A model generated the notes under the pieces. It was not told the origin of the DNA. It did not search any database and saw only the letters and a list, made by a program, of their open reading frames with translations. Shown piece by piece: positions 5,769-27,815 of a stretch of DNA of 32,000 nucleotides. The stretch is from an uncultured Clostridia bacterium. Its GTDB lineage: Bacteria > Bacillota_I > Bacilli_A > RF39 > UBA660. Positions within the stretch are counted from its first letter, which is position 1, and each line of letters begins with the position of its first letter. Made by a program: the position numbers and the translations under genes. The DNA lies in the NCBI GenBank assembly GCA_948433435.1, contig CAOJDX010000014.1:6556-38555 (forward strand), given 5' to 3'.

Positions 5769-7069
5769 TGGAAAAGATAAATTTTTCTGAGGAATTGGAA
5801 TTAGAAGGCTATTATGAAAAATTAGATAATGAGTTAGAAGTTTATTTAGTTCCGATGGAAAATAAGGATAAATATTTTTTGACTTATGCTACTAAATTTG
5901 GTTCTACTACTACAACGTTTACTCCAGGAGATTCTAAAAGAGAGGTAACAGTTCCAGATGGAATTGCTCATTTTTTGGAACATAAAATGTTTGAACAAGA
6001 AGATGGTGTAGATCCTTTTACCTTTTTTTCTAAGAGTGGAACAGATGCTAATGCTTCTACTAATTTTGAAGGAACACGTTATATTGCTTCTGGGACTAAA
6101 AATTATGAAGAAAATTTAAGATATTTAATTCGTTATGTTAATAGTCCATACTTTACCGATGAAAATGTAGAAAAAGAAAAAGGAATTATTGCTCAAGAAA
6201 TTAATATGTATAAGGATGAAGCAGAGTATGCTATTGAGAATACACTGAGAAAAAATACTTATCATAAAGATCATCATCGGATCGATATTGCTGGTGAAGT
6301 GGAAGACATTGAGAAGATTACAAAAGAAGATTTATATTTATGTTATAATAACTTTTATCAGCCAAGAAATATGTTTTTATTAGTGGTGGGAAAGTTTAAT
6401 GTTGATCAAACAAAAAGAATTATTGACGAAGAATTAAGACCACTAGTGAATAAGACGGAGACTATTCCTATTATTAAAGAGATAAAGGAACCTCAGTCTA
6501 TTAAAAAGAAAGAGGAAACTATTCCTTTTAATATTACTATTCCTAAAATTATGCTTTCTGTTAAGACACCTATTAGTAATTTTAAGATAGATGATCAATT
6601 CAAATTAGATTTTTATTTAAGAGTTATTATGAGTGTTGCTTTTGGAAATGGTTCTCTTTTTAGAGAAAGAATTACCAATCATAATTTGATGACTAGATTT
6701 TATACAGATTTGGAGTCTGTTCAACAATATAAGACCATTTATATATATGCTGAAAGTATTAAACCAGATGAATTGTTACAAGAAATCTATCAAGAATTTG
6801 ATCATATTGTAGTTACTGAAGAAGATTTGGAACGTTTAAAGAAAGTTTTTATTGCTCAGGAGATAAAGCAAGCGGATTATGTTGATGGTGTAACAATGAG
6901 TATTACTAATGATTTAATTCGGTATCATCGATTAATTCATAATCCAATTGAGCTGTATAAAAGTTTAAATATTGAGGAATTAAATAAAGTATTAAAAGCT
7001 ATAGAGTTTAAAAATCGAGCTTTAGTAACTTATGTTCCTAAAAATATGCCTAGTTTTGATAAAAATTAA
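5768..7069 (+). CDS. M16 family zinc metallopeptidase (catalytic partner)
   Basis: HFLEH (HxxEH inverted zincin motif) in GIAHFLEHKMFEQ. Translationally coupled to the upstream M16 paralogue, resembling the YmfF/YmfH-type pair found near ftsK in Bacilli. Confidence 0.85.
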   Translation: MEKINFSEELELEGYYEKLDNELEVYLVPMENKDKYFLTYATKFGSTTTTFTPGDSKREVTVPDGIAHFLEHKMFEQEDGVDPFTFFSKSGTDANASTNFEGTRYIASGTKNYEENLRYLIRYVNSPYFTDENVEKEKGIIAQEINMYKDEAEYAIENTLRKNTYHKDHHRIDIAGEVEDIEKITKEDLYLCYNNFYQPRNMFLLVVGKFNVDQTKRIIDEELRPLVNKTETIPIIKEIKEPQSIKKKEETIPFNITIPKIMLSVKTPISNFKIDDQFKLDFYLRVIMSVAFGNGSLFRERITNHNLMTRFYTDLESVQQYKTIYIYAESIKPDELLQEIYQEFDHIVVTEEDLERLKKVFIAQEIKQADYVDGVTMSITNDLIRYHRLIHNPIELYKSLNIEELNKVLKAIEFKNRALVTYVPKNMPSFDKN

Positions 7070-7085
7070 ATATAATTGTTTTAGT

Positions 7086-7111
7086 AGAGACCTTTAGAGG
7101 TTTCTTTTTTT
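7086..7111 (+). terminator. Intrinsic terminator closing the chromosomal operon
   Basis: AGAGACCT (7086-7093) pairs with AGGTTTCT (7098-7105), giving an 8-bp stem with one G-U and loop TTAG, followed by a T-run to 7110. Confidence 0.7.
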
Positions 7112-7148
7112 ATAGGGTGATTATAATACCCCTTTGACAAAATGACTT

Positions 7149-7158
7149 GGGGGGGGGG
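7149..7158. repeat. G10 homopolymer tract
   Basis: Ten consecutive G (7149-7158) in an AT-rich intergenic region, 10 nt downstream of a perfect TTGACA (7134-7139). Confidence 0.9.
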
Positions 7159-7359
7159 AGATTAAAGCATATACCCAAAATGTTGGTAAATGCTAAAAAT
7201 GCCTTATAATACAAGGCTTTGTGGATAGTTTAATAAAATTTGTTTTATAGATGAAAAATGATTATTTGATAAAAAGTATTAAAATTGTATGTTTATTAAA
7301 GTTCTCAAACAATGAGAGCTTTTTATTTGTTGTAAAAAAGAAAAAGGGGGATTGATAAA

Positions 7360-8241
7360 ATGACAAATAAAAATATAATTAAAGTAGGAACTTTCTTTAG
7401 TGGAATAGGAAGTCCAGAAAAGGCACTAGAAAGATTAAAAAATGAAGGAGTTATAAAAGATTATGAAGTTGAATTCTTTTCAGAAATTGATAAAAATGCG
7501 ATTAAAAGTTATTGTGCAATTCATAATGTAGATGAAAGTTTAAATCTTGGTAGTATAACAGATATTAAAGGGAATGATTTACCATATTGTGATCTTTGGG
7601 TTGGAGGTTTTCCATGTCAAGATATATCATGTGCAGGTAAAATGCGTAGCTTTAATTTTGAAAGTTCAACAAGATCATCACTTGGTTGGGAGATGATTAG
7701 ACTACTTAGAGAAGTAAATATAAAACCAAAATACGTTATATTTGAAAATGTAGCTATGATTACAAGTAAGAAATTTAAAGATACATTAAATCTATTTAAA
7801 GAAGATTTAATGAGTTTAGGATATACATTATATGATGAACTATTAAGCGCTACTGATTATGAAATACCTCAAACTAGAACGAGGTATTTTTTAGTTGCAA
7901 TATTAGGTGATAATAAAAGGTTTAGATTTCCAGATAAGATAGAAAACAATGCAATGTTAAAGGATTTACTTGAGGAAGAAGTAGATGAAAAATATTATCT
8001 AACTGATTCAAATTATATAGAAAAAGATAATAAAAGGATATTTAAACATAAGAATAGAGATGATATAGAGTATGAAGTTGATATGTATAAATATTTTAAT
8101 GGCGGTGTATGTGGGGTAGATAAACATACAAAGTTTGCTATTTCTTCACGATTATTTTCTATATATGGAAATTCACCAACTTTAACAGCAAGTAACACTT
8201 CTGATAATAGCAAAATTGTTATAGAAAGCGAGGAAAAATAA
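7360..8241 (+). CDS. DNA (cytosine-5)-methyltransferase, N-terminal and TRD part (frame-interrupted)
   Basis: Motif I FFSGIGS, motif IV GGFPCQDIS, motif VI FENV, motif VIII QTRTRYF, and a TLTAS element in the TRD. The ORF stops at TAA 8239-8241 before motifs IX and X. Confidence 0.9.
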   Translation: MTNKNIIKVGTFFSGIGSPEKALERLKNEGVIKDYEVEFFSEIDKNAIKSYCAIHNVDESLNLGSITDIKGNDLPYCDLWVGGFPCQDISCAGKMRSFNFESSTRSSLGWEMIRLLREVNIKPKYVIFENVAMITSKKFKDTLNLFKEDLMSLGYTLYDELLSATDYEIPQTRTRYFLVAILGDNKRFRFPDKIENNAMLKDLLEEEVDEKYYLTDSNYIEKDNKRIFKHKNRDDIEYEVDMYKYFNGGVCGVDKHTKFAISSRLFSIYGNSPTLTASNTSDNSKIVIESEEK

Positions 8242-8411
8242 TGAGAATAAGAAGATTAACACCAAAAGAATGCTGGCGACTAATGGGATTTGATGATTCA
8301 GATTTTGATAAAGCAAATAAAGTATGTAGTGAAACAAATCTTTATCATCAAGCAGGAAATTCTATTGTAGTAAATGTTATGTATTCTATTTTAAAAGAAT
8401 TACTAAGATAA
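8241..8411 (+). CDS. DNA (cytosine-5)-methyltransferase, C-terminal part (motifs IX-X) in a different frame
   Basis: This ORF is absent from the supplied track (56 aa). It reads MRIRRLTPKECWRLMGFDDSDFDKANKVCSETNLYHQAGNSIVVNVMYSILKELLR. RRLTPKECWRLMGF is motif IX and QAGNSIVV is motif X. Its ATG overlaps the upstream stop (TAATG). Confidence 0.85.
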   Translation: MRIRRLTPKECWRLMGFDDSDFDKANKVCSETNLYHQAGNSIVVNVMYSILKELLR

Positions 8412-8429
8412 TTATAAATAAAAAAGATG

Positions 8430-8693
8430 CTATTTTGCATCCTTATCATTATCCATAAGTTTTTCGTAACCATCAAAAAATTTTCTAATATCAAAATTAT
8501 ATTTTTGAGCCAAAAAGAATAGGGTATCTAGTGAAATTCCTGTATCTACATTTGGACTTTCAATATGAGATATAAAACTTCTACTCATATCTGTATCTTC
8601 TGCCATTTTTTCTTGTGATTTACCAATTATATCTTTTCTTATGGATTTCATGTTTTTCCCTATAAGGGTAAAAAGTTCATAAGTGTTTTTCAC
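8430..8693 (-). CDS. XRE-family helix-turn-helix transcriptional regulator
   Basis: 87 aa. SQEKMAEDTDMSRSFISHIES is a typical Cro/CI HTH. Convergent with the methyltransferase, with a shared hairpin GATGC/GCATC near 8426-8442. Confidence 0.8.
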   Translation of the reverse strand: MKNTYELFTLIGKNMKSIRKDIIGKSQEKMAEDTDMSRSFISHIESPNVDTGISLDTLFFLAQKYNFDIRKFFDGYEKLMDNDKDAK

Positions 8694-8802
8694 AGCAATA
8701 CCTCCTATATATAATTTTATAGGAAATACGAGTTTTATACTGCTCCTCTGTAAGGAGCAAAATTGTTGTTGATATTACTATTTTTATGTTATAATTAAAT
8801 TG

Positions 8803-8836
8803 GCACAAAAAAGAATACTTTTTAATTGTATTCTTT
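8803..8836 (-). terminator. Intrinsic terminator (minus strand) after the 8835..9098 gene
   Basis: On the minus strand, AAAGAATAC pairs with GTATTCTTT (plus coordinates 8809-8817 and 8828-8836) and is followed by a T-run. The stem includes the stop codon. Confidence 0.55.
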
Positions 8837-9098
8837 ATCGCCTAGGAATGCGACGATTTTCAATATTTTCTCTTTTCTCAAATAATTGGAAAAGTTCAAC
8901 ATTAAGCACAGCTGCGATGTGATCAATATAGTCGATTCTAGTATTTCTTTTAGCATTTTCTAAATTAGATACATAAGTAGGAGTAGTTCCAAGCTTATCT
9001 GCAAAATCTTCTTGGGACCAACCTTTTTGTAATCTATAGTAAACTATATTATTTGCTAGAATACTACGAGCATCAGATTTTAATTTAATTGTCATCAC
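8835..9098 (-). CDS. XRE-family helix-turn-helix transcriptional regulator (candidate element repressor)
   Basis: 87 aa. WSQEDFADKLGTTPTYVSNLENAKRN is a canonical XRE HTH. Divergent from the 9259 gene, with a palindromic operator in between. Confidence 0.85.
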   Translation of the reverse strand: MMTIKLKSDARSILANNIVYYRLQKGWSQEDFADKLGTTPTYVSNLENAKRNTRIDYIDHIAAVLNVELFQLFEKRENIENRRIPRR

Positions 9099-9149
9099 AT
9101 CCTTCCTTTACTTACTACTATTGTAATAAGTTTGTAAAAAACTAACCAT

Positions 9150-9167
9150 ACTTACTATGTAGTAAGT
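9150..9167. promoter_or_regulatory. Palindromic operator candidate (ACTTACTA TG TAGTAAGT)
   Basis: A perfect 8-bp inverted repeat at 9150-9167, plus a third identical half-site ACTTACTA at 9110-9117. TATAAT at 9177-9182 lies just downstream. The site sits between the divergent XRE gene and the rightward genes. Confidence 0.5.
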
Positions 9168-9258
9168 TATATAAATTATAATGGAATAAAAAAGGGAAAA
9201 ATGTTGAGTTTTGTGCTAAAACAAAAAGGTAGATATTTTAAAAGATAAGGAGCTAGAT

Positions 9259-9747
9259 ATGAACAAAAAAAATACAAATGAATATGTAAAAAAAATATCT
9301 GAAGTTTTAGATGACAAAATTAAAACTATTACCTCAATTCAATATTATTATGATTTAGAAAAAATTACATCATCTTTAAATAATTTATCAGATGCTGATG
9401 CAGAAAATGTTTTAGAACAAATAATTAATGATAAATTAGAAGAAATTAAGAAAAGCGGTAAAGCAGAGAAATTTAGAGAAAACAATAGATTAGTAGATGA
9501 TGTAACTGAATTTTTCTATGACAATAATGAAAAAGATGGTGCTATTGTTGAAGAAGGAAGTTGCGTAGCATCAGATTTGATTTTAAAAACAATAGGAATA
9601 AATGGCAGAAAAATTGAACTGCCAGTAAATATTTCATATATAAAGGAATATTGTATAAGTAATATTATTGAGGAAAAAAGTATAAGAAAAACATTGTTAT
9701 GGATAGTTTTAGAACTATCAGTTGTAAGTTATTTTTTAAATAATTAA
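9259..9747 (+). CDS. Hypothetical protein with a C-terminal hydrophobic segment
   Basis: AAGGAG RBS 7 nt upstream of the ATG. 162 aa, helical and charged, ending TLLWIVLELSVVSYFL. No family recognised. Confidence 0.6.
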   Translation: MNKKNTNEYVKKISEVLDDKIKTITSIQYYYDLEKITSSLNNLSDADAENVLEQIINDKLEEIKKSGKAEKFRENNRLVDDVTEFFYDNNEKDGAIVEEGSCVASDLILKTIGINGRKIELPVNISYIKEYCISNIIEEKSIRKTLLWIVLELSVVSYFLNN

Positions 9748-9872
9748 AAATGACTTCTATAAGTAGTAGTAATTAGCAGTACCTAAATCTACCTTTTTAA
9801 GACACTTCTAATTCTATGGGAGTGTTTTGTATTGTAATTAAGTTAAATATATATAAATAAGGTCGTGATATT

Positions 9873-10454
9873 ATGTTACAAGTTAGTAGAGCAAATAATT
9901 TGAAAATTCCTAAAACATTAGAAAATGTAAGTGGCAATTTAAATAGTTTAGAAGATAAAGTTGCAGTAAAACAAGCACTTGCAACTGCTGATGATAAAAG
10001 ATTTAATAAAAAGAAAGTTATAGAGTCAATTGAAAAAGATAAAGAATTAGAACAAATTAATAAAATACCAACAAATGCAAATGATTTAATGGTTATAACA
10101 GTTGTAAAAAAATTAGGTGCTTATATTATTGCAATTACTGAAAAATCTCCTTCTAAATTTAGAGGTGTATTTGTTAATCGTATGCAAAATTTAAGTTTAG
10201 CAACATTAGAAATACTGCTGAATGCTAATTTTATTAGAATTGATAGTGAAGATCATAAAAAAGAAAGAGAAGAATATCAGAAAGATGCAATAATAAAACT
10301 TAAAATGTTGGGCTATATTTCTATGATAGCTGAAAATTCTAACTGTATATTAATGCGACAATATAAACAAATATCATTGCAAATAGGGGAAGCAATAAAT
10401 CTTATTGCAGCTTGGAAAAAAAGTGATGATGAAAGATGGAGAAAAAGAAATTAA
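9873..10454 (+). CDS. avd: DGR accessory variability determinant (Avd-like four-helix-bundle protein)
   Basis: The C-terminal ~120 aa (KKLGAYIIAITEKSPSKFRGVFVNRMQNLSLATLEILLNANFI...IIKLKMLGYISMIAENSNCILMRQYKQISLQIGEAINLIAAWKK) fit the Avd / 23S-rRNA-IVS four-helix-bundle pattern with a basic tail. It lies immediately upstream of TR and RT. The ~70-aa N-terminal extension makes the true start uncertain. Confidence 0.75.
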   Translation: MLQVSRANNLKIPKTLENVSGNLNSLEDKVAVKQALATADDKRFNKKKVIESIEKDKELEQINKIPTNANDLMVITVVKKLGAYIIAITEKSPSKFRGVFVNRMQNLSLATLEILLNANFIRIDSEDHKKEREEYQKDAIIKLKMLGYISMIAENSNCILMRQYKQISLQIGEAINLIAAWKKSDDERWRKRN

Positions 10455-10527
10455 ATTATGGATTTTAAACTGAAAGGTTTTTAATTAAGTGGAGGGTTTA
10501 TTTAACCATTTTACTCGTAGCTGTCGG

Positions 10528-10627
10528 CTTCTGATGGCGATGGGGATGTTCGCGGCGTAAATAAAGATGGTTCTAGGTATAACAAATATAGATATAAACG
10601 CAATGGCGCCGTCCGCCCAGATTTGCT
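10528..10627 (+). repeat. DGR template repeat (TR)
   Basis: A 100-nt ungapped match to 12162-12261 (constant offset 1634) with 89/100 identity. It is non-coding here (in-frame TAG at 10518-10520). The 3' end carries the GC-rich block GGCGCCGTCCGCCC. Confidence 0.9.
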
Positions 10628-10839
10628 TTTGAAGAGATTTAATTTTAAGTCTAGAAAACAGGTCAGAGAAATATATTTTATGTAAAATATATCAGAACTT
10701 TAAAGCAAAGGAATCTTCCACTTTTCTAACCGCTATAAAAAGTGCGGTGGATAAATTATAAGCACTCACACAAACAACGATAATTGGTTATCTTTGCAAG
10801 TTATAAGGGGTGCTTTTTATTATTATTTTGGAGGCAATT
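10628..10839 (+). ncRNA. DGR spacer region of the TR-containing RNA (between TR and RT start)
   Basis: A non-coding 212 nt in the position of the DGR Sp RNA. It contains hairpin ATATATTTTA/TAAAATATAT (10671-10692) and GC patches CCA..CCGC / GCGGTGG (10718-10750) that are unusual for this AT-rich DNA. Extent and structure are not verified. Confidence 0.45.
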
Positions 10840-11859
10840 ATGAAACTAGAAGATATATTCACATTTAAAAATATTTATGAGGCACATAAAAAATGTAGAA
10901 AATCAAAGCAACATAAGGGAGAGGTAATAAGATTTGAGGTTAATTTGTCTGAAAATATATATAAGCTAATTAATGAGATAATAACGAAAAAATACAAAGT
11001 TGGTAAATATAAGCAATTTATTATTTATGAACCTAAGAAGAGATTAATAGAAGCTTTGCCATATAAGGATAGAGTATTACTTATGTGTTTTTGTGAACAT
11101 TCATTAATACCAAAAATTGATAAAAGATTAATATATGATAATGTTGCATGTAGAAAAGGTAAAGGAACATTATTTGGTATGAATAGATTAGAGAAATTTT
11201 TAAAAAAAGAATTTTTTAAAGAGAATAACAATAGAGTATACTATTTGAAATGTGATATAAGAAAATATTTTCCAAGTGTAAATCACAATATTTTATTAGA
11301 AAAATTACGAAAATTAGATTTTAGTGAAGATGAAATGTGGTTTTTAGAAAAAATAATAAAGGAGCAACCTAATAATATTGATAGGGGATTACCATTAGGT
11401 AATCAATCAAGTCAATGGTTTGCATTATTCTTTTTGGATAGAATTGACAGGTTAGTAAAAGAAGAATTAAGAATTAAATGTTATATTAGATATATGGATG
11501 ATTTTATATTGATACATCGAGATAAAAAATATCTGCAATATTGCTTAAAAAGAATAAATGAAGTTTGCAATAAAGAACTAGATCTTGAATTAAATCAAAA
11601 AACACAAATAGGAATAGCATCTAATGGAATAGATTTTTTAGGTTTTAGACATACTTTATCAAATAGTGGTAAAGTTATAAGAAAGCTGAGATTATCTTCT
11701 AAAAAGAGGTTAAGAAGGCATTTAAAAACGTTATCAAAACTTCATTCAAAAGGGATTATTGATAAAGAATACGTGGATATTAGAAAAAATGCTTTTTATG
11801 CCCATATTTTATATTCTGATGAAAAATTTTTTCAAAAGATGTGCTTAATTGATAAATAA
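10840..11859 (+). CDS. DGR-type reverse transcriptase
   Basis: YMDD catalytic box (IRYMDDFILIH), motif 4 LPLGNQSSQWFA (the GxxxSQ signature typical of DGR RTs), and EPKKRLIEALPYKDRV and CDIRKYFPSVNH motifs. It is compact, with no maturase or endonuclease domains. Start set at ATG 10840, 5 nt after GGAGG, rather than the track's GTG 10810. Confidence 0.9.
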   Translation: MKLEDIFTFKNIYEAHKKCRKSKQHKGEVIRFEVNLSENIYKLINEIITKKYKVGKYKQFIIYEPKKRLIEALPYKDRVLLMCFCEHSLIPKIDKRLIYDNVACRKGKGTLFGMNRLEKFLKKEFFKENNNRVYYLKCDIRKYFPSVNHNILLEKLRKLDFSEDEMWFLEKIIKEQPNNIDRGLPLGNQSSQWFALFFLDRIDRLVKEELRIKCYIRYMDDFILIHRDKKYLQYCLKRINEVCNKELDLELNQKTQIGIASNGIDFLGFRHTLSNSGKVIRKLRLSSKKRLRRHLKTLSKLHSKGIIDKEYVDIRKNAFYAHILYSDEKFFQKMCLIDK

Positions 11860-11947
11860 TGTTAATTTACAAAAATAAATTTGTAAAATTAACAAAAAAA
11901 GTGAAGAAATGTAGGGAAAATATGATAAAATGATAATGGTGGTTTAA

Positions 11948-13876
11948 ATGAATTTCGATAAGGAATTAACTTTACTTTCTGAACAAGAAGTTTGGGGAGT
12001 TAATGGTGGCAGACAATTAGATGTTTTAGAAAAATATGGAACTAGATCTGCTATTACTGATTTAGTAATATTAACAGGTGGATATTGTGAGGATAGTTGT
12101 TCTTACATGGCACCAGATGATAATAGTTTAAAAGGAAGAACAGGATGGGTTTATACTAGATCTTCTGATGGCTATGGTGATGTTCGCGGCGTCTATGAAG
12201 ATGGTTCTAGGTCTGACGACTATAGCTATAAACGCAATGGCGCCGTCCGCCCAGCTTTGCTATCATCTTTCATTTTCTCTCAAATCTCCCCGAACAGAGT
12301 GAGGGGATACAATGGAACAGAAGAGGTTGAATATGGAGAATATCCTCAATATGCACCTGATTCAGATGTTCAAAGAAGATTAGAAAATGAATATCAAAGA
12401 GGGAACCTAAGACAAACAGGTAGAGACTACACTTTTGATAAAACAGAATATGATGATTACTCACAATATTTTCAACCAGTAACATACGAAGAATATGATT
12501 ATAATGGAAAAAAATACATTCGTATTAGAGCTAATTCTGATTATGGGAGTAATAGCTTTAAATTATCAAATGGAGAATCATACAGAAATGGAGATTACGT
12601 TTGGGTAGAAGTATCACCTGTAAAATGGTTAGTTGATGACAAAACTCAAACTTTAGTATCTAAAAGAGGACTATTAGCAGGAATAAGATTTCATACTGAT
12701 GATAAAAGTTATAATGGTGATTTTTCAACAACTGATATGAAAGAATATCTTGACAAACATATGCTAAGGGATTTAACTCAAACTGCAACCTTCACTCGTG
12801 TTGAAGATATGACACCAGAAGAAAAGAAAGAATATGAAGAAGAACAAAAAAGAGCTGAGAAAAGAAGAAATCCTTATGGACTAAATTTTGGACAAGTAAG
12901 TGAAGAAGAAATCATTAAAGGGGCAATAGAAAGCGGTGTAGCAGTATTTTTGCATGGTCAATCTAGTGAAGGTAAGAGTGCAAGGGTAAAACAAATAGAT
13001 CCAACTTGTGAAATAATTTATCTTCGTAATGCAACACCAGAAAGTTTGAATGGTAAAAGTGTTTACAATCAAGCAACAGGAGAAATGATGGATGTTCCTC
13101 CAACTTGGCTAAAAAAATTACAAGAAAAATGTGAAAAAGAACCAGATAGATACCATATTGTATTTTTAGATGAAATAACAAATGCTCTTCCTAGTATTCA
13201 AGGTATTGCATTTAATATAGTTTTAGATAGGGAAGTTAATGGTATTTGGAAATTACCAGATAATGCTAGAATTGTTGCGGCAGGAAATGATATGAAAGAT
13301 TCACTAGCTGCAAATCAATTAGCAGAGCCATTATTTAATAGATTTGCTCATGTATACATAAAAACAACAACTGAAAGTTGGTTAAAATGGGCAAGTGAAA
13401 ATAATATACATCCTGCTATCTATTCTTATATTGCTTATAAGAAAGGCGAAACACTAAGAAGTAAGTATGATGGTGAAAAACCTAATGCAGATCCAAGAAA
13501 GTGGGAAATGGCTTCTAAAATGCTATATGCAACAGGTAGTCCAGAAATGTTAAGAGCATTAGTTGGTGAAGATATAACAAGAGAATTTGTACAATTCTGT
13601 AATCAACAAGTTATTACATTAGATGATGTTATTAATGGAACTTATACTGATAAAGACATACAAGCATTAAACACTGCAGAAAGATATGCTACAACTATGG
13701 GATTATCACAAGTAGATGAAGATAATCTTGAAAAAGTAAGAGGTTTTGTAACAGATTTAGGTGCAGAATTTGGAGCAATTTTTGATGCTTTATGGACACA
13801 TGGCGATGAGGAAAGATTAGAAAGAATTGCGGAAGCAAAGCTTGCTGATATGCCAAGAGGAGGTATAAGAAGATAA
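11948..13876 (+). CDS. DGR target protein: N-terminal variable (CLec-like) domain fused to a MoxR/AAA_5-type ATPase
   Basis: Contains the VR at aa 72-105 (...GWVYTRSSDGYGDVRGVYEDGSRSDDYSYKRNGAVRPALL). No signal peptide or TM segment. Walker A G337QSSEGKS344, Walker B HIVFLD408E409IT, then NARIVAAGN and PLFNRFAHVYI, typical of MoxR/CbbQ-type AAA+ proteins. Confidence 0.85.
   Translation: MNFDKELTLLSEQEVWGVNGGRQLDVLEKYGTRSAITDLVILTGGYCEDSCSYMAPDDNSLKGRTGWVYTRSSDGYGDVRGVYEDGSRSDDYSYKRNGAVRPALLSSFIFSQISPNRVRGYNGTEEVEYGEYPQYAPDSDVQRRLENEYQRGNLRQTGRDYTFDKTEYDDYSQYFQPVTYEEYDYNGKKYIRIRANSDYGSNSFKLSNGESYRNGDYVWVEVSPVKWLVDDKTQTLVSKRGLLAGIRFHTDDKSYNGDFSTTDMKEYLDKHMLRDLTQTATFTRVEDMTPEEKKEYEEEQKRAEKRRNPYGLNFGQVSEEEIIKGAIESGVAVFLHGQSSEGKSARVKQIDPTCEIIYLRNATPESLNGKSVYNQATGEMMDVPPTWLKKLQEKCEKEPDRYHIVFLDEITNALPSIQGIAFNIVLDREVNGIWKLPDNARIVAAGNDMKDSLAANQLAEPLFNRFAHVYIKTTTESWLKWASENNIHPAIYSYIAYKKGETLRSKYDGEKPNADPRKWEMASKMLYATGSPEMLRALVGEDITREFVQFCNQQVITLDDVINGTYTDKDIQALNTAERYATTMGLSQVDEDNLEKVRGFVTDLGAEFGAIFDALWTHGDEERLERIAEAKLADMPRGGIRR
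12162..12261 (+). repeat. DGR variable repeat (VR)
   Basis: Counterpart of TR. Of 11 differences, 9 lie opposite TR adenines (TR 10559, 10560, 10563, 10579, 10581, 10584, 10586, 10592, 10621). The GC-rich 3' block is conserved exactly. Confidence 0.9.
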
Positions 13877-14268
13877 TGGAAAAAAGACAAGAATTATTAA
13901 TGTCATATATAAGAGCGAATGTTGCACCTATATTAGTTGATTTTATCTCTGGTAAAGATGTTAAGGGTGCAGTTGTAATACCTGCTAATATTGATAATAA
14001 AGAATTAAATGGTCATTATGATGGAATAGATTTTATGCCACCTAAATGGCTTAGTGAAATAACTCAAACTAATGAAAGTAAGTTCTTAATAATAGATAAG
14101 ATTGATACTATTTCAAAAGAAGACCAATTAAAGTTTTGTGAACTATTAGAACATAGAAAAATATCAACTTTTGAATTACCAAAGAGTTGCGTCATTATTG
14201 TAACTGCTAACGAAATTAATAAGGATAAAATAAACGAAGAAATATACTCATTAGTTGCACAAATATGA
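13876..14268 (+). CDS. Truncated AAA+ core paralogue lacking Walker A
   Basis: The start overlaps the upstream stop (TAATG at 13874-13878). MPPKWLSEI...KFLIIDKIDT...CELLEHRKISTFELPKSCVIIVTAN parallels PPTWLKKL...HIVFLDEITN...NIVLDREVNGIWKLPDNARIVAAGN of the preceding ATPase. No P-loop is present. Confidence 0.7.
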   Translation: MEKRQELLMSYIRANVAPILVDFISGKDVKGAVVIPANIDNKELNGHYDGIDFMPPKWLSEITQTNESKFLIIDKIDTISKEDQLKFCELLEHRKISTFELPKSCVIIVTANEINKDKINEEIYSLVAQI

Positions 14269-14278
14269 GGTATAAATT

Positions 14279-15898
14279 ATGAAATACGATATAGAAGCTT
14301 TAAAGAGAAAAATGCTTGTTAAATATCCTTTTTTTGGTAGTGTAGTAGCAAGTATTGATTATAAAGAAAATCTAGGAATACCAACTGCAGGTACTGATGG
14401 AAAAACAATATATTATAATCCTGAGTATTTAGATGGATTGGGGCGCGATGAACAAACATTTATATTTGCTCATGAAGTATGTCATATTGCATTTAATCAT
14501 ATATTAAGGAGCGAAGGTAAAAATCCAGAGTTATGGAACATTGCGACTGATGGAGTAATCAATCAATTTTTAAAAAAGGATGGTTTAAAATTAGCTCCGG
14601 GTGGAGTTGATATGGAAGAAGCAATCAATTATGATGCTGAGCAATTATATGAAAAATTATTGCAAGAAAAACAGCAAAGACAACAACAAAATCAAAATGG
14701 ACAAGAAAATAGTCAAAATCAAGATCAAAAACAAAATCAAAGTGATTCTAGTAGCGGAGAATCTAGTCAAGAACAGACTCAAAAAGGAGATTCTGAGAAT
14801 CAAAGTCAATCTGGAAGTCAAGAGCAAGAAAATAACCAAAATGAACAACAAAGTTCTAGTGAAAGCCAAGGCGATAGTGATGAACAGCAAAGTGATTCTA
14901 AAAATCAAAGTAGTTCTGGAAGTAATAGTTCTCAAAATCAAGAACAAAATGTGCAACAGGATCAACAAAGTGGTGGAGGTAGTTCAGATTCTGAGCAACA
15001 AGAAGAACAAGATTCTTCAAAAAGAGATGTGGGACATGATACTCATAGTTTATGGGAAAAGGCAGTAAAAAAGCATAAAGAAGAGCAAAGTAAATCCTCT
15101 GATAAAAAGGAAAGTTTATTAGATAAAATACTAAATAAGCAAAAAGATAAACAAGAGAAAACTAAAAGTGAACTTGAAAAGAAACAAGAAGAATTAGAAG
15201 AGATGGGGGAGAAAGATGCTTTTAAGAAAAATCGTGAAGATAAGAAAAAACAACTTGAAGAATTAAAGCAAGCAATAGCAAAACAAGCATCTACAGCAGG
15301 AACTTTAACCAATAGAGATATTAGAACAATTGAAGATATAGGAACTGCTAAACCACTCATTGATTGGAGATATGTTTTAAGGGAAGCAATCAAATATGAT
15401 GTTGATTGGTCATATAAAAATGCCTCTATAGAAGATGGAATCGTTGTAGCTAATTTGGAAGAACAACCTATGCCAGAAACAGAAATAGTATTAGATACAA
15501 GTGGTTCAATTAATGAAGTTTTATTAAAGAACTTTTTGAGAGAATGTAAAAATATATTACAACATTCCAGATTAAAAGTAGGATGTTTTGATACAGAGTT
15601 TTATGGATTTCATGAGATAAGAACAGAAGAAGATATTGAAAATATGACATTTGAAGGCGGTGGCGGCACTGATTTTGATGTTGCGGTCGGTGCTTTCTCT
15701 AGAAGAGTTGAAAATAAAATAATTTTTACTGATGGAGAAGCTTCCATGCCAGATATGCCAATTGATGCCATTTGGATTGTATTTGGTGGCGAAAAGATTA
15801 ATCCTAAAGGTGGTAAGGTAATTAATATTACTGCGGAACAATTAGATAGATTATATTCTTATGAAATTGTAAATGAGACTAAAGGTAGAGCAAGATAA
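14279..15898 (+). CDS. DUF2201-type protein: N-terminal zincin-like metallopeptidase domain, disordered linker, C-terminal VWA domain
   Basis: H65EVCH69 (HExxH) in a YPFFG...TDGKTIYYNPEY...FIFAHEVCHIAFNH context. Q/S/N/E-rich low complexity at about aa 128-238 and a K/E-rich stretch at about aa 250-335. VWA MIDAS-like D406TSGS, GGGTDF and FTDGE. GAGGT RBS precedes ATG 14279. Confidence 0.8.
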   Translation: MKYDIEALKRKMLVKYPFFGSVVASIDYKENLGIPTAGTDGKTIYYNPEYLDGLGRDEQTFIFAHEVCHIAFNHILRSEGKNPELWNIATDGVINQFLKKDGLKLAPGGVDMEEAINYDAEQLYEKLLQEKQQRQQQNQNGQENSQNQDQKQNQSDSSSGESSQEQTQKGDSENQSQSGSQEQENNQNEQQSSSESQGDSDEQQSDSKNQSSSGSNSSQNQEQNVQQDQQSGGGSSDSEQQEEQDSSKRDVGHDTHSLWEKAVKKHKEEQSKSSDKKESLLDKILNKQKDKQEKTKSELEKKQEELEEMGEKDAFKKNREDKKKQLEELKQAIAKQASTAGTLTNRDIRTIEDIGTAKPLIDWRYVLREAIKYDVDWSYKNASIEDGIVVANLEEQPMPETEIVLDTSGSINEVLLKNFLRECKNILQHSRLKVGCFDTEFYGFHEIRTEEDIENMTFEGGGGTDFDVAVGAFSRRVENKIIFTDGEASMPDMPIDAIWIVFGGEKINPKGGKVINITAEQLDRLYSYEIVNETKGRAR

Positions 15899-15933
15899 TG
15901 TTAAATTAACAAAAATTGTGAAATAAATAATTA

Positions 15934-15970
15934 AAAATAGATAATTGGTGTGAAATATCTATTTTTTTTT
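15934..15970 (+). terminator. Intrinsic terminator ending the DGR/target operon
   Basis: AAAATAGATA (15934-15943) pairs with TATCTATTTT (15956-15965), a 10-bp stem, followed by a T-run to 15970. Confidence 0.65.
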
Positions 15971-21678: not shown

Positions 21679-24408
21679 TTGAAAAAATTAACGAAATATT
21701 TGTTAGTTGCTGTTGGTTTACTTATTGGTGCTACAGTTAATGCACAATCAGTATCAGCTGCAACTTTAAACTACGATTTCTCTGGTTATTGGTATGAACG
21801 TCAAAATGGTGATGGTTCAGATCATTCATCATGGAAATTAGAAAATTATTATGTAGATGGTCAAACTGCATATTGTATTGAACCAGGAGTTCCAGAAGGT
21901 AATCCCATGTATCCAGCTGATTGGAATGCAACAGGACTTAGTCCTTCCATTAAAGATAGATTAACTTTAGTCGCTTACTATGGATACACCTATCCAGGAC
22001 ATCAAAATATTAAATATCATGCTGCTACACAAGCAATGATTTGGGAAGCAATTTTAGGTGAAGGATCTTGGGTTAGATTTTCAACAGCAAGATGGAATGG
22101 AGGTACACCACTAGATATATCAGCAGAACGTGCTGAAATTGAAAATTTAATTGCTCATCATAGAGATTTACCTAGTTTTAGTGGCCAAGTACATAGATTA
22201 CAAGTAGGTGAAACATTAGTATTAACAGATACAAACAATGTTTTATCTAATTATGAAGTAAGCGTTAACAACGCTAATGTTAGTGTGAATGGAAATCAAT
22301 TAACAATCATTCCTACTGAAAGTGGAACAATTGATTTAAATTTAACAAAAAAACAAGTTTATTCTGGCGAATATAAATTATTTGTTGGAGATAAAATTCA
22401 AAATATGATCGTACCAGGAGCTGTTGATCCTGTACGAACTAGAGTAAGAATTAATTCTTATAAAAGTATAGTAAAAGGACATAAGTCTGATACAGAAACT
22501 GGTGTAGCACAAGGACAAGCTACATTAAAAGGTGCAACTTATGGAGTTTATGAAGAATCAACTGGTAAACTAGCAACAACTGTAACAACTAATGAAAATG
22601 GATATTTTCAAAGTGCTGCAGTTTTAACATATAAAAAATACTATTTACAAGAGATTAGTCCAAGTGAAGGATATTTACTTGATACAACAAAATATTATTT
22701 TGACATGAGAAATAAAGATAGTATTGAAGTTAATGTAAAAGAAAAAGTTGTAAAAAACTTTATTAGTATTCTAAAACAATATGATTATGTTGATGGAAAT
22801 ACTACATTTTTAAATGCAGAAAAAGGTATAACTTTTGAAATATATTATCCAAATGGAAATAAATGGGGAGAAGTAACTACAGATAAAAATGGTTATGCTA
22901 CTATTGAAATTCCTTATGGAGTATGGAAATTTCATCAAGTAAATTCTAATACTGGATTTGAAAAAATATATGATTTCTTTATAACAGTTGATTATGATAG
23001 TGAACAAGAACAATATTATAATATTTTAAATAATAAATTATCTGCATATTTACAAGTATTTAAAATTGATTCTGAAACAAATGAAAAGATTGCAATACCT
23101 GATACTACATTTAAAATATATAATTTAGGTACAAAACAATATGTATCTCAATATGTTGGTGGTAAAGTATATGATACTTTTAAAACTGATGAAACAGGTA
23201 AATTTATTACTTATTTAAAATTAGAGGCAGGAAATTATAAATTAGTTGAAATTTCTAGTCCACACAATTATTTATTAAATAGTGAAGGAATGACTTTTAC
23301 AATTGGAAATAATACTCATTATAATTACACTACTTATGGTGCTTTTGTAACAGTATATTTTGAAGATAAAGTTATCAAAGGACAAATTGAAGTAAATAAA
23401 ACTGGTGAAGTTCCTGTAATTAAAGATGGTACATATACTTATGAAGTAAAATCTTTAGAAGGTGTAACATTTGAAATTTATGCTAATGAAGATATTTTAT
23501 CTGCTGATGGTAATCATTTATATTATAGTAAAGGTGAACTAGTAGATACAATTACTACTAATAGCGAAGGTTATGCAAAAAGTAAAGAATTATATTTAGG
23601 ATCTTATTATTTAGTAGAAGTAAAAACCTTAGATAATATGGTTTTAAATCCAGAAAAATTTAATTTTACTTTAACTGAAAAAGATAATAAAACACCTATA
23701 GTATATGAAAGCTATAGTGCTTTTAATTATTATAAAAAAGGTGAATTAGACTTTAGTAAAGTTGATCTTACAACTGGAAAAGGTATTGCTGATGTAGATG
23801 TAGAAATATATTATGTTTATGGTAAAAATGAAAGAGAGTTAGTATTTACTGGTACAACAGATGATGAAGGAAAGATAAAAATTACTGATTTATTTGTTGG
23901 TAAATTTGTAATTGTAGAAACTAATCCAGCAACTGGATATAAACTTAGTGATGAAGAAGTTTTCTTTGAAATCAAAGAAAATGGAGAAATCGTAAAAGCT
24001 GAAATGACTAATGAAAAAATAACATCAACTGTAAAAATCTATAAAGTAGATGAAGAAGGTAATGCAATAAAAGGCGTTACTATTGGTGTTTATGATTTAG
24101 ATGGAAATTTAATTGATTCTGGAGTAACAGATGAAAATGGAGATATTGAATTTGTTATGGAATATGGATCATATTATTTTCAAGAAATTGCTACATTAGA
24201 TGAATTTGAATTATCAGATGAAAAAGTTTATTTTGATGTAACAGAAGATGGTGAATATATTCAAAAAACATTAGTTAACGAACTAAAAGAGATTGAAGTA
24301 CCTAATACTTCATCAAATAGTTATATAGATATTATTGCAGGTGTTATTGTTTTAACAGGTGCAGGTTTAATTATAATATCTAGCAAAAGAAAAAATAAGA
24401 AAAAATAA
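21679..24408 (+). CDS. Cell-surface adhesin: signal peptide, thioester domain, multiple CnaB/SpaA-type repeats, C-terminal sorting-like signal
   Basis: Signal peptide MKKLTKYLLVAVGLLIGATVNAQSVSA. The thioester-domain signature TAYCIEPG has a downstream Gln in ATQAMIWE. There are repeated G(A/V)T(Y/F)..Y....G.........T...G......L..G.Y...E...P.GY modules. The C-terminus is EVPNTSS, a hydrophobic helix, then KRKNKKK. Confidence 0.8.
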   Translation: MKKLTKYLLVAVGLLIGATVNAQSVSAATLNYDFSGYWYERQNGDGSDHSSWKLENYYVDGQTAYCIEPGVPEGNPMYPADWNATGLSPSIKDRLTLVAYYGYTYPGHQNIKYHAATQAMIWEAILGEGSWVRFSTARWNGGTPLDISAERAEIENLIAHHRDLPSFSGQVHRLQVGETLVLTDTNNVLSNYEVSVNNANVSVNGNQLTIIPTESGTIDLNLTKKQVYSGEYKLFVGDKIQNMIVPGAVDPVRTRVRINSYKSIVKGHKSDTETGVAQGQATLKGATYGVYEESTGKLATTVTTNENGYFQSAAVLTYKKYYLQEISPSEGYLLDTTKYYFDMRNKDSIEVNVKEKVVKNFISILKQYDYVDGNTTFLNAEKGITFEIYYPNGNKWGEVTTDKNGYATIEIPYGVWKFHQVNSNTGFEKIYDFFITVDYDSEQEQYYNILNNKLSAYLQVFKIDSETNEKIAIPDTTFKIYNLGTKQYVSQYVGGKVYDTFKTDETGKFITYLKLEAGNYKLVEISSPHNYLLNSEGMTFTIGNNTHYNYTTYGAFVTVYFEDKVIKGQIEVNKTGEVPVIKDGTYTYEVKSLEGVTFEIYANEDILSADGNHLYYSKGELVDTITTNSEGYAKSKELYLGSYYLVEVKTLDNMVLNPEKFNFTLTEKDNKTPIVYESYSAFNYYKKGELDFSKVDLTTGKGIADVDVEIYYVYGKNERELVFTGTTDDEGKIKITDLFVGKFVIVETNPATGYKLSDEEVFFEIKENGEIVKAEMTNEKITSTVKIYKVDEEGNAIKGVTIGVYDLDGNLIDSGVTDENGDIEFVMEYGSYYFQEIATLDEFELSDEKVYFDVTEDGEYIQKTLVNELKEIEVPNTSSNSYIDIIAGVIVLTGAGLIIISSKRKNKKK

Positions 24409-24483
24409 TAAAGAATTAAAGGGGTTTGGTTTTTTATATAGATTAGTTATTACTATAATTATTAAAAGAAGGGGGAATGAATA

Positions 24484-24861
24484 ATGAGTAGTATTAATAA
24501 ATTTTGTGTTATGGGAAGATTAGTTAGAGATCCAGAACTAAAAGAATTAGAAAATGGAAATAAAGTAGCTAATATTTCCTTAGCGGTAGATAGAGATTAT
24601 AAAGATAAAGAGGGTAATAAAATTACTGATTTTCTTAATTATTCTCTATGGAATAAAGATGCTGAAAGAATCTGTGAGTTTAGTAAAAAAGGAGCAATTG
24701 TATGTTTAGAAGGATCATTTGGAGATAAAGAAATTGAAATAGGTGATGGTAAAAAAATTCACACTTTCAATCCGATTGTTGAAACATACAGACATATTGC
24801 TAATGCTAAAAATATGGATTCAGAAGTAGAAAATACTAAAGAAACAGAAATGGAAAAATAG
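24484..24861 (+). CDS. ssb: Single-stranded DNA-binding protein
   Basis: OB-fold pattern INKFCVMGRLVRDPELKELENGNKVANISLAVDRDYKDKEGNKITDFLNYSLWNKDAE. Short, with no canonical acidic DDxPF tail. Confidence 0.8.
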   Translation: MSSINKFCVMGRLVRDPELKELENGNKVANISLAVDRDYKDKEGNKITDFLNYSLWNKDAERICEFSKKGAIVCLEGSFGDKEIEIGDGKKIHTFNPIVETYRHIANAKNMDSEVENTKETEMEK

Positions 24862-24862
24862 T

Positions 24863-25450
24863 ATGATAGATACTAATAAAACTTATACTTTAGCTGAGTT
24901 ATTAAACTTATATAGCTTATATAATTTAGAATTTAAATTTTATGGTAATAACGACAATGGAAGTTTAGATATTTATATGAAAACAGGTATTGATGAAATA
25001 TCTGTTTTCTCATCTATAACTCCAAATATGACTAAAAAAGAATATATAGATCTTAGTGAAGAAGAAGCTAAGAAAATAGAATTTAAATTTGATAGGGAGG
25101 TATCAGATGTGGAATTAGATATAGTTGCAGTTGTATTAAGAACAAGTGATGTAAATATACCATCAACAAAATATTCACTTGAAACTTTAGATAGATTAAC
25201 TAAAGAACAAGATCAAGAAGATAGAAAAAATAAAAAAGGTGAACAGGATGGTATTTGCTATTTTATTGTAGATCACAATACTGGTTGCAACCTTTATGAT
25301 GGCGTTTATCTATTTGATAAAAATAATAAAGGGCTAATGGAAGATTTAAAGAATAAATACGATCAAGAAGAAAATCAATTATTAAAGAATAATTTGAAAT
25401 TAATACTAGATTATTACGAACAGTTAGAAGAAAAAGAAATAACTAAGTAG
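24863..25450 (+). CDS. Hypothetical protein (conjugative-element associated)
   Basis: 195 aa, tightly packed after ssb (1-nt gap after the stop). No recognisable motifs. Confidence 0.55.
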   Translation: MIDTNKTYTLAELLNLYSLYNLEFKFYGNNDNGSLDIYMKTGIDEISVFSSITPNMTKKEYIDLSEEEAKKIEFKFDREVSDVELDIVAVVLRTSDVNIPSTKYSLETLDRLTKEQDQEDRKNKKGEQDGICYFIVDHNTGCNLYDGVYLFDKNNKGLMEDLKNKYDQEENQLLKNNLKLILDYYEQLEEKEITK

Positions 25451-25477
25451 TATTTAAAGAAAAAAGGGGGAATTGTT

Positions 25478-25837: not shown

Positions 25838-25846
25838 GAGAATAAT

Positions 25847-27511: not shown

Positions 27512-27528
27512 GGAAGGAGTAAATTAAT

Positions 27529-27792: not shown

Positions 27793-27815
27793 ATATGAAA
27801 AAAGGGGGTTAAATT

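Follow-up and report, generated by a model that had tools for sequence, protein, structure and literature searches.

The diversity-generating retroelement (DGR) described here is active and diversifies the N-terminal domain of its target, a protein whose C-terminal half is predicted to be a MoxR-class AAA+ ATPase (NorQ or phage N4 gp24 type), catalytically intact. Within the N-terminal domain, about 15 codons of one beta-hairpin are rewritten by the Avd/TR/RT cassette. The locus looks like a reprogrammable intracellular recognition machine, borne on a mobile element in gut bacteria. Related ideas have been published for other bacteria, and the present build is unpublished. A preliminary description of this DNA had proposed that a DGR diversifies a cytoplasmic sensor fused to a MoxR-type ATPase, in one operon with a P-loop-less AAA paralogue and a DUF2201-type zincin-VWA protein. 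Taken overall, it was borne out in almost every detail.

Locus layout and DGR

A complete DGR (Avd, TR and RT) lies ahead of the three-gene operon in the window, which is the whole 32,000-nucleotide stretch of DNA analysed. The features are:

9259..9747, +, orf162, found together with Avd and RT in 6 loci
9873..10454, +, Avd-like DGR accessory protein, 193 aa (phrog_3206 “Avd protein of DGR”, 3.6e-12)
10528..10627, +, template repeat (TR), 100-nt repeat of the VR
10810..11859, +, DGR reverse transcriptase (RT) (RVT_1 5.8e-18; phrog_1423 5.1e-95)
11948..13876, +, target, 642 aa, N-terminal variable domain fused to a MoxR-class AAA+ ATPase
11948..12817, +, N-terminal recognition domain of the target, aa 1-290, putatively permuted DUF6273-like (AF2 model; DUF6273 match in the relative P0132)
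12162..12261, +, variable repeat (VR), aa 72-105 of the 642-aa target
12902..13846, +, MoxR-class AAA+ module and helical C-terminal region of the target, aa 319-633 (phrog_1297 1.9e-49)
13876..14268, +, AAA', 130 aa, degenerate AAA core without P-loop
14279..15898, +, zincin-linker-VWA protein, 539 aa, N4 gp25-type partner
15934..15970, +, probable intrinsic terminator, all-A/T hairpin followed by T9

The three genes follow the DGR as first described. A TAATG stop/start overlap joins the target ORF to the AAA' ORF, and a 10-nt gap precedes the ORF of the VWA protein. The target, AAA' and the zincin-linker-VWA partner are predicted to be co-transcribed. The terminator that had been proposed to close the unit was upheld in part, with its hairpin reaching -14.4 kcal/mol (z = -2.35) in a fold calculation, but it escaped the consensus terminator scan.

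The DGR itself is identified by an adenine-biased TR/VR pair together with the adjoining RT and Avd. The RT, which probably begins at the ATG at 10840, contains the YMDD and LGNQSSQ motifs. Against NCBIfam DivGenRetAVD, Avd scored 4.5e-5, under the model cutoff, and it stayed under the Pfam cutoff too. For orf162, family profile searches (including PADLOC and PHROG) gave no significant match.

TR and VR are 89% identical over 100 nt. Nine of the 11 mismatches are on TR adenines, and the other two are G>T at the 5' end. Exactly 2 copies of their conserved 25-nt 3' end are found in the window, where chance would give 0. With 28 adenines and 18 mutable codons, the TR allows approximately 10^13 possible protein variants. 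In related loci, the mismatches on adenines were 9/9, 11/11, 11/11, 9/9 and 13/13, and independent A-specific TR/VR pairs were found at L002, L003, L006, L010, L023, L033 and L082.

Diversification is also seen in nature. In a set of 101 natural variants that share 94% identity or more with the window protein, entropy averages 0.84 bits at aa 72-105 and 0.04 bits elsewhere, with variability concentrated at aa 74-97. All high-entropy VR positions (15/15) are codons with a TR adenine, and the reading frame is kept across the set. Natural hypervariation is confined to these TR-adenine codons.

Variable domain, ATPase and zincin-VWA partner

In the AF2 model of the N-terminal domain (pLDDT 95, pTM 0.89), the VR forms a beta-hairpin (strands 78-82 and 88-92) with flanking loops. 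Residues 1-105 run as a strand, three short helices and four strands, an order that would be compatible with CLec topology. Foldseek searches of the domain against PDB and BFVD gave no match at E < 0.04 and did not recover the CLec fold. The window protein had no match to Pfam DUF6273 (PF19789) at E <= 0.1, and 5 of 74 members of the N-domain family match this model weakly. Because the match of P0132 (26.3 bits, cutoff 23.5) spans the repeat junction, it indicates that the variable domain, of about 290 aa, is probably a circular permutant of DUF6273. The sensor domain of the preliminary description holds as a cytoplasmic, DGR-varied domain, but its CLec or ligand-binding nature is putative and rests on distant DUF6273 homology. 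The N-domain family is large, with 1697 clusters at 50% identity and many standalone members.

In a Kyte-Doolittle scan, the values of all 19-residue windows of the target stay at or below 1.13, and its N-terminus is acidic. It is therefore predicted, as first described, to have no membrane segment or signal peptide.

In 54 non-DGR orthologues, entropy is 0.39 bits in the AAA core and 1.7-1.8 bits in the N-domain, with the highest value of the protein, 2.6 bits, in the segment equivalent to the VR. In paralogue arrays, N-domains diverge while the ATPase is nearly identical. The N-domain is fast-evolving everywhere and the ATPase nearly invariant.

As for the ATPase, Walker A (G337QSSEGKS) and Walker B (D408E409) are both present. 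These motifs, together with H65EVCH69 and D406TSGS of the 539-aa protein, are invariant or nearly so in 59-61 homologues from other species. The top Foldseek match is NorQ (E = 1.8e-9, TM 0.62-0.67), with the MoxR structure 2r44 also among the best matches; Pfam AAA_5 reached only E = 0.01. Relatives annotated as “MoxR-like ATPase” occur in 729 phage records. The AAA' protein aligns with aa 321-468 of the target (hhalign E = 1.7e-5, 124 columns) with the P-loop segment deleted, and BLASTP gave E = 0.009. It was found in 52 loci and agrees with the P-loop-less paralogue first described.

The third protein contains a zincin at aa 8-189 (DUF2201_N, 5.7e-36), a Q/S/K/E-rich linker and a MIDAS-bearing VWA domain at aa 403-517 (DUF2201, 1.7e-14), and it also matches phrog_1314 (4.9e-70). 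Its HExxH, DTSxS, GGGGT and IIFTDG motifs are kept in 59 homologues, and the ATPase-VWA pairing is conserved in 63 loci.

Genomic setting and interpretation

The three-gene unit is found amid housekeeping genes in most of 75 species. Chromosomal copies are at unrelated positions, with housekeeping genes and no defence islands in their neighbourhoods. Of 48 informative loci, 8 have an intact RT and another 6 have RT remnants, giving 14 homologous loci with an intact or decayed DGR upstream; one further relative, only 50% identical, also has an intact or decayed DGR upstream. Homologues of the unit thus do associate with DGRs. The three-gene unit is a pre-existing cassette, older than the DGR, and no other neighbour of it is conserved across homologous loci.

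In the window, the region from 21.7 to 31.3 kb encodes a VirB4/TraG-like ATPase, a T4SS pilin-like protein, an SSB, an M23 peptidase and a TED-SpaA adhesin, and the left junction with housekeeping genes is at approximately 7.1-7.36 kb. The proposed location on an ICE is consistent with these conjugation genes, but no integrase, relaxase or tRNA was found within the window. To call the locus a defence module on an ICE is one reading of several, because the cassette pre-existed, mostly among housekeeping genes, and is built on the gp24/gp25 core pair of the lytic phage N4.

Our preferred interpretation, which we regard as an even call, is a DGR-programmable recognition module mounted on a MoxR/VWA/zincin machine, acting as a cytoplasmic conflict (immunity-type) system. 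By analogy with NorQ-NorD, the ATPase hexamer would display six variable N-domains, and the VWA domain of the partner would dock on the ATPase ring. ATP hydrolysis could then pull the long acidic linker, so that the HExxH protease is positioned or activated against prey captured by the variable domains. The captured ligand would most likely be a protein of a genetic competitor, either a phage or another mobile element. On mobile elements the DGR would keep renewing the specificity, a role that in chromosomes would fall to ordinary fast evolution and to the multiplication of paralogues.

This interpretation is favoured by the adenine-specific hypervariation of a cytoplasmic target, by the conserved catalytic and MIDAS motifs, by an N-domain that varies over a constant AAA core in both orthologues and paralogue arrays, and by the unrelated chromosomal positions of the cassette. 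Published DGR-diversified MoxR-vWA sensors (PMC7159879, PMC10907252) and VWA docking on NorQ (PMC13036017) point the same way. Counted against it are the housekeeping neighbours, the lack of a Foldseek match for the N-domain and the PADLOC 2.0 result, where the target, AAA' and the VWA protein had no match and only the RT did (generic RT / DRT models). The machine would not be intrinsically a defence device, since lytic N4-like phages have its ATPase/VWA pair among their core genes, and a chaperone role in assembly has been proposed for the pair of jumbo phages (PMC4193335, PMC7824862).

A bolder and more tentative form of the conflict-system interpretation is cytoplasmic antibody-like targeting in gut Bacilli and their mobile elements, with a DGR-renewed lectin-like receptor on an AAA+ motor coupled to a metalloprotease, by which recognised foreign proteins are captured and then remodelled or cleaved. 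If true, prokaryotic immunity (or counter-immunity) would have a reprogrammable “degrader” arm, with a mechanism distinct from the published VMAP/iSTAND systems.

Somewhat less probable still is an offensive or establishment factor that serves the ICE or prophage and not the host, by capturing and inactivating variable host proteins of a new recipient. The prey could be, for example, defence or restriction factors, with the DGR adapting the element to many hosts. Every DGR-bearing copy is located on mobile DNA or next to it: the one in the window adjoins an orphan C5 methylase and the conjugation genes, a large serine recombinase is near L010 and L023, and L082 is beside siphovirus tail genes. 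Target genes 96-97% identical occur in bins of four species, consistent with horizontal spread. Mobile elements are also the classical beneficiaries of DGRs, and the base gp24/gp25 pair works for phages (PMC4193335). However, 34 of the 48 informative loci lack a DGR; housekeeping genes flank them directly, and no genes of mobile elements are in view. Furthermore, only 1 match was found in 2.9 million viral contigs, and the N-domain had no match in the isolate phage and plasmid collections.

We consider improbable a chaperone or maturation system devoted to one cellular or element-encoded complex, which it would remodel or metallate in the manner of NorQ/NorD, CbbQ/CbbO or CobS/CobT. The N-domain would be a client adaptor, with DGR variation only fine-tuning binding. 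BchD/ChlD, the chelatase D subunits, combine a degenerate AAA, an acidic linker and a VWA domain, and the present layout is reminiscent of them. NorQ as best structural match, the MIDAS of the VWA partner and the retention of the cassette beside housekeeping genes in small-genome gut Bacilli fit such a role, as does the chaperone proposed for the jumbo-phage pair (PMC7824862). A fixed client is nevertheless at odds with the number of VR variants accessible, with population-level hypervariation, with an N-domain whose variability is 4-5 times that of the motor in all lineages, and with paralogue arrays in which the N-domains diverge. Near the homologous loci, no gene for a candidate client is conserved.

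Lastly, a decaying passenger DGR, with VR variation of no adaptive role, is very hard to credit: RT remnants upstream of 6 homologous targets (showing frequent loss), the two non-adenine TR/VR differences and the lack of a detected hairpin downstream of the VR speak for it, but RT, Avd and TR are intact in the window and the diversity of the 101 variants falls exactly on TR-adenine codons with the frame kept.

Comparison with known systems

The link between DGRs and NTPase-based conflict systems, noted in the preliminary description, is in print for MoxR-vWA systems (PMC7159879, PMC10907252). These ternary systems (VMAP / iSTAND) likewise use a DGR to vary a putative sensor of CLec type, encoded in one operon with a MoxR ATPase, a vWA protein and a peptidase, and some of their DGR targets are also predicted to be cytoplasmic (PMC7159879, PMC10907252). 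There, the variable FGS/CLec domain forms the C-terminal end of the vWA protein or of a separate target, whereas in the present locus the ATPase itself has the variable domain at its N-terminus, and the peptidase is a zincin fused to the vWA protein. Effector-associated domains and trypsin/caspase or TIR effectors are absent here, and judged by gene content (target, AAA' and zincin-VWA) the operon has no VMAP or iSTAND component. The hosts also differ, with unicellular small-genome gut Bacilli, Clostridia and mobile elements here and multicellular cyanobacteria or proteobacteria for VMAP/iSTAND.

The N4 gp24/gp25 pair (MoxR-like ATPase and DUF2201_N-vWA) is a core gene pair of lytic phages (PMC4193335), and pairs of this type are also found in jumbo phages, with the assembly role mentioned above (PMC4193335, PMC7824862). 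Both proteins are homologous to those described here, adjacent and in the same gene order. In JWAlpha, profile matches were obtained with gp33 (3.9e-23, target) and gp36 (2.8e-32, VWA protein), which are annotated as N4 gp24 and gp25 homologues. However, the phage gp24-type ATPases begin at approximately aa 320 of the target, with no N-terminal variable domain, AAA' or DGR.

NorQ-NorD also has a VWA partner joined to a functional linker (PMC13036017, PMC9976466), and NorQ gives a precedent for VWA docking and linker remodelling (PMC13036017). Sequence identity between NorQ and the target ATPase is only 12-16%. There is no NOR client here, NorD has no counterpart of the zincin, and NorQ has no variable N-domain.

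Finally, the “tentaclins”, DUF6273 DGR targets of gut phages, also have the VR near the N-terminus, in a hypermutated DUF6273-type beta-hairpin, and like the window protein they come from gut Firmicutes ecosystems (PMC10743442). Tentaclins contain Ig domains and are proteins of virions or adhesins (PMC10743442), whereas the domain described here is predicted to be cytoplasmic, circularly permuted relative to the Pfam model and fused to an ATPase.

Layout of the operon and activity of the DGR

The DGR parts and the trio of target, AAA' and VWA protein genes are arranged as follows, in window positions:

9873-10454, forward strand: Avd-like gene (PHROG "Avd protein of DGR", 3.6e-12)
10528-10627, forward strand: template repeat (TR), 100 nt, a repeat of the variable repeat (VR)
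10810-11859, forward strand: reverse transcriptase (RT) gene (phrog_1423, 5.1e-95), with YMDD and LGNQSSQ motifs
11948-13876, forward strand: target gene, 642 aa (ORF call)
12162-12261, forward strand: VR, matching the TR and coding for target aa 72-105
13876-14268, forward strand: AAA' gene, 130 aa (ORF call)
14279-15898, forward strand: VWA protein gene, 539 aa (ORF call)

The anatomy given in the preliminary description is essentially right, and the feature is real and active. The three ORFs lie where it had placed them, with a TAATG overlap that couples the target and AAA' genes translationally and the VWA protein start 10 nt past the AAA' stop. All the motifs it named (G337QSSEGKS, D408E409, H65EVCH69 and D406TSGS) were found. 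The target was also said to lack a transmembrane segment and a signal peptide. This holds, since no 19-residue window exceeds 1.13 on the Kyte-Doolittle scale and the N-terminus is acidic; the protein is predicted to be cytoplasmic. As for the proposed terminator, an all-A/T hairpin followed by T9 is present (-14.4 kcal/mol, z = -2.35), but it does not satisfy the G+C requirement of the consensus scan.

In terms of mutagenesis, 9 of the 11 differences between TR and VR fall at TR adenines, and the other pair, near the 5' end, are G>T changes. At the 3' end the repeats share 25 invariant nt, which occur in the window at the TR and the VR only, and no second VR was found in the window. A hairpin downstream of the VR was not supported by the fold test (z = +0.96). 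A protein search with the target returned many near-identical natural variants. Among 101 of these, at least 94% identical to the target, mean entropy per site is 0.84 bits at aa 72-105 and 0.04 bits elsewhere. Every one of the 15 hypervariable VR positions (74, 76, 78, 83-85, 88-95 and 97) is a TR-adenine codon, and the TR permits about 10^13 protein variants. DGR rewriting of the N-terminal hairpin of the target is therefore real and active.

The two G>T differences are at 12173 and 12178 (TR 10539 and 10544), on the 5' edge of the VR. Tyr recurs among the 101 variants, at aa 76 in 22 and at aa 78 in 14, and cannot be reached from the TR codon GAT by adenine mutagenesis. This suggests either TR polymorphism or a shifting 5' boundary of cDNA replacement. 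Further upstream, a 162-aa ORF (9259-9747) has no family match. In 6 DGR-bearing loci it is found together with Avd and RT, and it could be an uncharacterised gene with an accessory or regulatory role in the DGR.

Domains of the target and its partners

The N-terminal domain (aa 1-290) is predicted to form a single folding unit (pLDDT 95, pTM 0.89). At 50% identity its family falls into 1697 clusters. Many members consist of this domain alone (about 300 aa), and the contigs found for them, only 1-4 kb long, tell nothing of their context; some members are tandem, and others are fused to DUF4116 repeats, ankyrin repeats or LRR_5 (BspA-type LRRs). Such tandem or fused occurrences of the ~290-aa domain (family proteins P0132, P0248 and P0198) imply that it behaves as a portable recognition module beyond its fusion to the ATPase.

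Sequence and profile searches of the PDB with the family gave no meaningful match, and the isolate phage and plasmid collections gave no match. Foldseek searches with the high-confidence model found nothing significant in the PDB (best E = 0.043) or in BFVD, where a DUF6273 viral model ranked second (E = 0.13, TM 0.22). A direct call of the CLec fold is therefore not possible, probably because the domain is permuted. The domain connects to a described family through relatives only, DUF6273 matching weakly in 5 of 74 family members. In the tandem-repeat relative P0132 the match is above the Pfam cutoff and runs across the end of repeat 1 and the start of repeat 2, in the equivalents of target aa ~235-286 and aa 2-110, respectively. 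Because this match straddles the repeat junction, the N-domain is best read as a circular permutant of DUF6273, and the VR falls in the C-terminal half of the canonical domain. For DGR targets of gut phages, models of DUF6273 show a CLec-like domain whose beta-hairpin is hypermutated (PMC10743442). In our N-domain model the VR also covers a beta-hairpin (strands 78-82 and 88-92). A CLec nature is thus plausible but indirect, and the boundaries and fold differ from those of the sensor domain first proposed.

The ATPase half (aa 319-633) matches phrog_1297 "ATPase" over almost the whole family length (1.9e-49). Homologues annotated as "MoxR-like ATPase" come from 729 phage records and 110 plasmids, and all start at about residue 320 of the target. 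Pfam and NCBIfam gave sub-threshold AAA_5 matches only for the target, and sequence and profile searches of the PDB found no meaningful match for this part. In the full-length AlphaFold model (pLDDT 80), its closest structure is NorQ (Foldseek E = 1.8e-9, TM 0.62-0.67), a MoxR-class protein paired with the VWA protein NorD, with a further similarity to the MoxR structure 2r44. Across 61 orthologues, the Walker A and B residues vary little or not at all, and the ATPase is predicted to be catalytically intact.

In a profile comparison by hhalign, AAA' aligns over 124 columns with target aa 321-468 (E = 1.7e-5) and proves to have lost the P-loop segment and the Walker B glutamate; BLASTP and tblastn give weaker support to the same alignment. 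Since the profile alignment lacks the P-loop segment, the label "P-loop-less AAA paralogue" is right. The reading of the third gene as a DUF2201-type zincin plus MIDAS-VWA protein is likewise borne out, by an N-terminal DUF2201_N zincin (5.7e-36) and a C-terminal DUF2201 VWA domain (1.7e-14), separated by a Q/S/K/E-rich linker of about 200 aa. HExxH, DTSxS, GGGGT and TDG are kept across 59 homologues, with linkers of varying length. This low-complexity linker (window 14655-15280, aa ~125-335) differs greatly in length between species, and the homologues range from 391 to 761 aa.

The ATPase and the VWA protein are homologues of phage N4 gp24/gp25, which belong to the set of 14 core genes in N4-like phages and have no known function (PMC4193335). 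Jumbo phages carry a MoxR and metallopeptidase-vWA pair that has been read as chaperone and co-chaperone (PMC7824862). The pair in the target cassette is of phage ancestry. No AAA' equivalent was found between the gp24 and gp25 homologues of phages JWAlpha and PA5oct.

Distribution of the cassette and of the DGR

Scanning a single genome per species gave 75 homologous loci, mostly in gut Bacilli ("Tenericutes"/RF39-like) and Clostridia MAGs. The only genes conserved across them are those for the target (72), the VWA protein (63) and AAA' (52), the last being absent from a more distant Clostridia clade. The DGR genes are rarer, with RT in 12 loci and Avd in 9. Upstream sequence of 2.3 kb or more is available for 48 loci; an intact RT was seen in 8 of these and RT remnants immediately 5' of the target in 6, leaving 34 with neither.

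The recurrent neighbours of DGR-free copies are Ddl, RuvA, RuvB, PheS/PheT, ArgS and MscS, together with a histidine kinase and an amino-acid permease. With such housekeeping genes flanking the homologous loci, the trio cannot be considered ICE-specific. Copies with a DGR are on or beside mobile DNA. The DGR is thus an addition to a cassette that already existed, with gains, losses and decay along the way. The trio, mostly chromosomal, thus predates the DGR, contrary to the original view of it.

The remnants are RT fragments of 39-294 aa directly 5' of intact targets (L009, L012, L017, L020, L022 and L028), indicating repeated DGR decay with the trio kept. Close homologues on short contigs at seven loci (L013, L014, L032, L037, L050, L055 and L071) come from Bacteroides, Oribacterium, Sphaerochaetaceae, Oscillospiraceae and Muribaculaceae bins, so that either the contigs are mis-binned or the cassette has spread widely by horizontal transfer.

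The window copy has an orphan C5 methylase on one side and conjugation genes on the other. Housekeeping genes (FtsK, a PNP-family phosphorylase and two M16 peptidases) end at 7069, and the methylase starts at 7360 (listed span 7069-8241). A TED-SpaA thioester adhesin, SSB, a T4SS pilin-like protein, a VirB4/TraG-like ATPase and an M23 peptidase occupy 21679-31300. The stretch resembles the left portion of a conjugative element; integrase, relaxase and tRNA genes are all absent from the window. Two other DGR-bearing loci (L010 and L023) have a large serine recombinase nearby. The single IMG/VR match (UViG_3300006217_003178, 7965-13625; L082) encodes a target 50% identical to ours, adjoining siphovirus tail genes. 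It has its own Avd, TR (8629-8711), RT and VR (10213-10295), with 11 of 14 TR/VR mismatches at TR adenines. This module lies 3' of siphovirus tail/baseplate genes and an ABC-transporter ATPase gene, and its Avd gene is apparently split into two ORFs.

The receptor is also variable where there is no DGR. Among 54 DGR-free orthologues, entropy is 0.39 bits in the AAA core versus 1.7-1.8 bits in the N-domain, and the target varies most, at 2.6 bits, in the stretch equivalent to the VR (aa 81-100). Several genomes have paralogue arrays, with 2-5 full-length targets per one or two AAA'/VWA pairs:

L027, 446-13694: paralogue array
L036, 4338-9902: paralogue array
L039, 5894-9884: paralogue array
L035, 95-6086: paralogue array

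The ATPase halves within arrays are 93-100% identical and the N-domains divergent, in what looks like a DGR-independent path to receptor diversity. At another locus (L034, 7986-17448), four targets are 100% identical including the VR, even though the DGR upstream of them is intact; either the gene was amplified in tandem very recently or the assembly is at fault.

Possible function and comparison with known systems

By analogy with NorQ-NorD, an ATPase hexamer would display six variable N-domains, and the VWA protein would dock onto the ring. The motor, driven by ATP, might then pull on the acidic linker and so position or activate the protease against a captured ligand. In NorQ-NorD, the VWA protein inserts a finger into the hexamer pore, and its linker is remodelled by the motor (PMC13036017).

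A constant motor joined to a fast-evolving or DGR-renewed receptor is a signature of genetic conflict, and for this reason we favour an immunity-type role for the trio and DGR, at roughly even confidence. Use of the machine by the mobile element against host factors would fit the strict tie of the DGR to mobile contexts and the phage ancestry of the ATPase/VWA pair, and we consider it possible though rather unlikely. A dedicated chaperone is improbable, given how much the receptor varies and that no client gene is conserved. That the DGR is non-functional and decaying is contradicted by the natural-variant population data, and this reading can practically be dismissed.

The locus is a compact version of a cytoplasmic DGR sensor, with five genes in about 6 kb (9873-15970), from the human/animal gut microbiome. 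Its activity is visible in population data, natural DGR-free and paralogue-array comparators exist, and its motor has homologues in the uncharacterised core pair gp24/gp25 of N4-like phages. The locus could make testable both the ligands of intracellular DGR targets and the role of the widespread phage MoxR/zincin-VWA pair. If the model of recognition leading to proteolysis is true, it would offer a natural scaffold for programmable protein targeting inside cells.

To our knowledge, the DGR targets that have been characterised are almost without exception virion or surface proteins, and cytoplasmic DGR "sensors" have so far been prediction only, in multicellular cyanobacteria and proteobacteria only. 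Large surveys report C-terminal VRs, with cellular targets mostly membrane-anchored or secreted (PMC8144416). Full-text literature searches found no account of the target, AAA' and zincin-VWA architecture with a DGR, and no PADLOC model covers the trio. In terms of novelty, which the preliminary description had raised, the build itself appears to be undescribed, but the idea of a DGR joined to MoxR-vWA is already published. Comparative genomics placed DGR-diversified CLec/FGS sensors in MoxR-vWA "ternary" conflict systems (PMC7159879), and sensors of this type are reported from Thiohalocapsa and cyanobacteria (PMC10907252). There the variable domain is C-terminal, on the vWA protein or on a separate target, whereas here it is N-terminal, permuted, and fused to the ATPase itself. 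The ternary systems contain a VMAP or iSTAND component; here, judged by gene content, neither is present, and we find instead an N4-gp25-type zincin-VWA partner and an additional degenerate AAA subunit. Finally, their hosts are multicellular, while those of the present system are small-genome gut Bacilli and their mobile elements.
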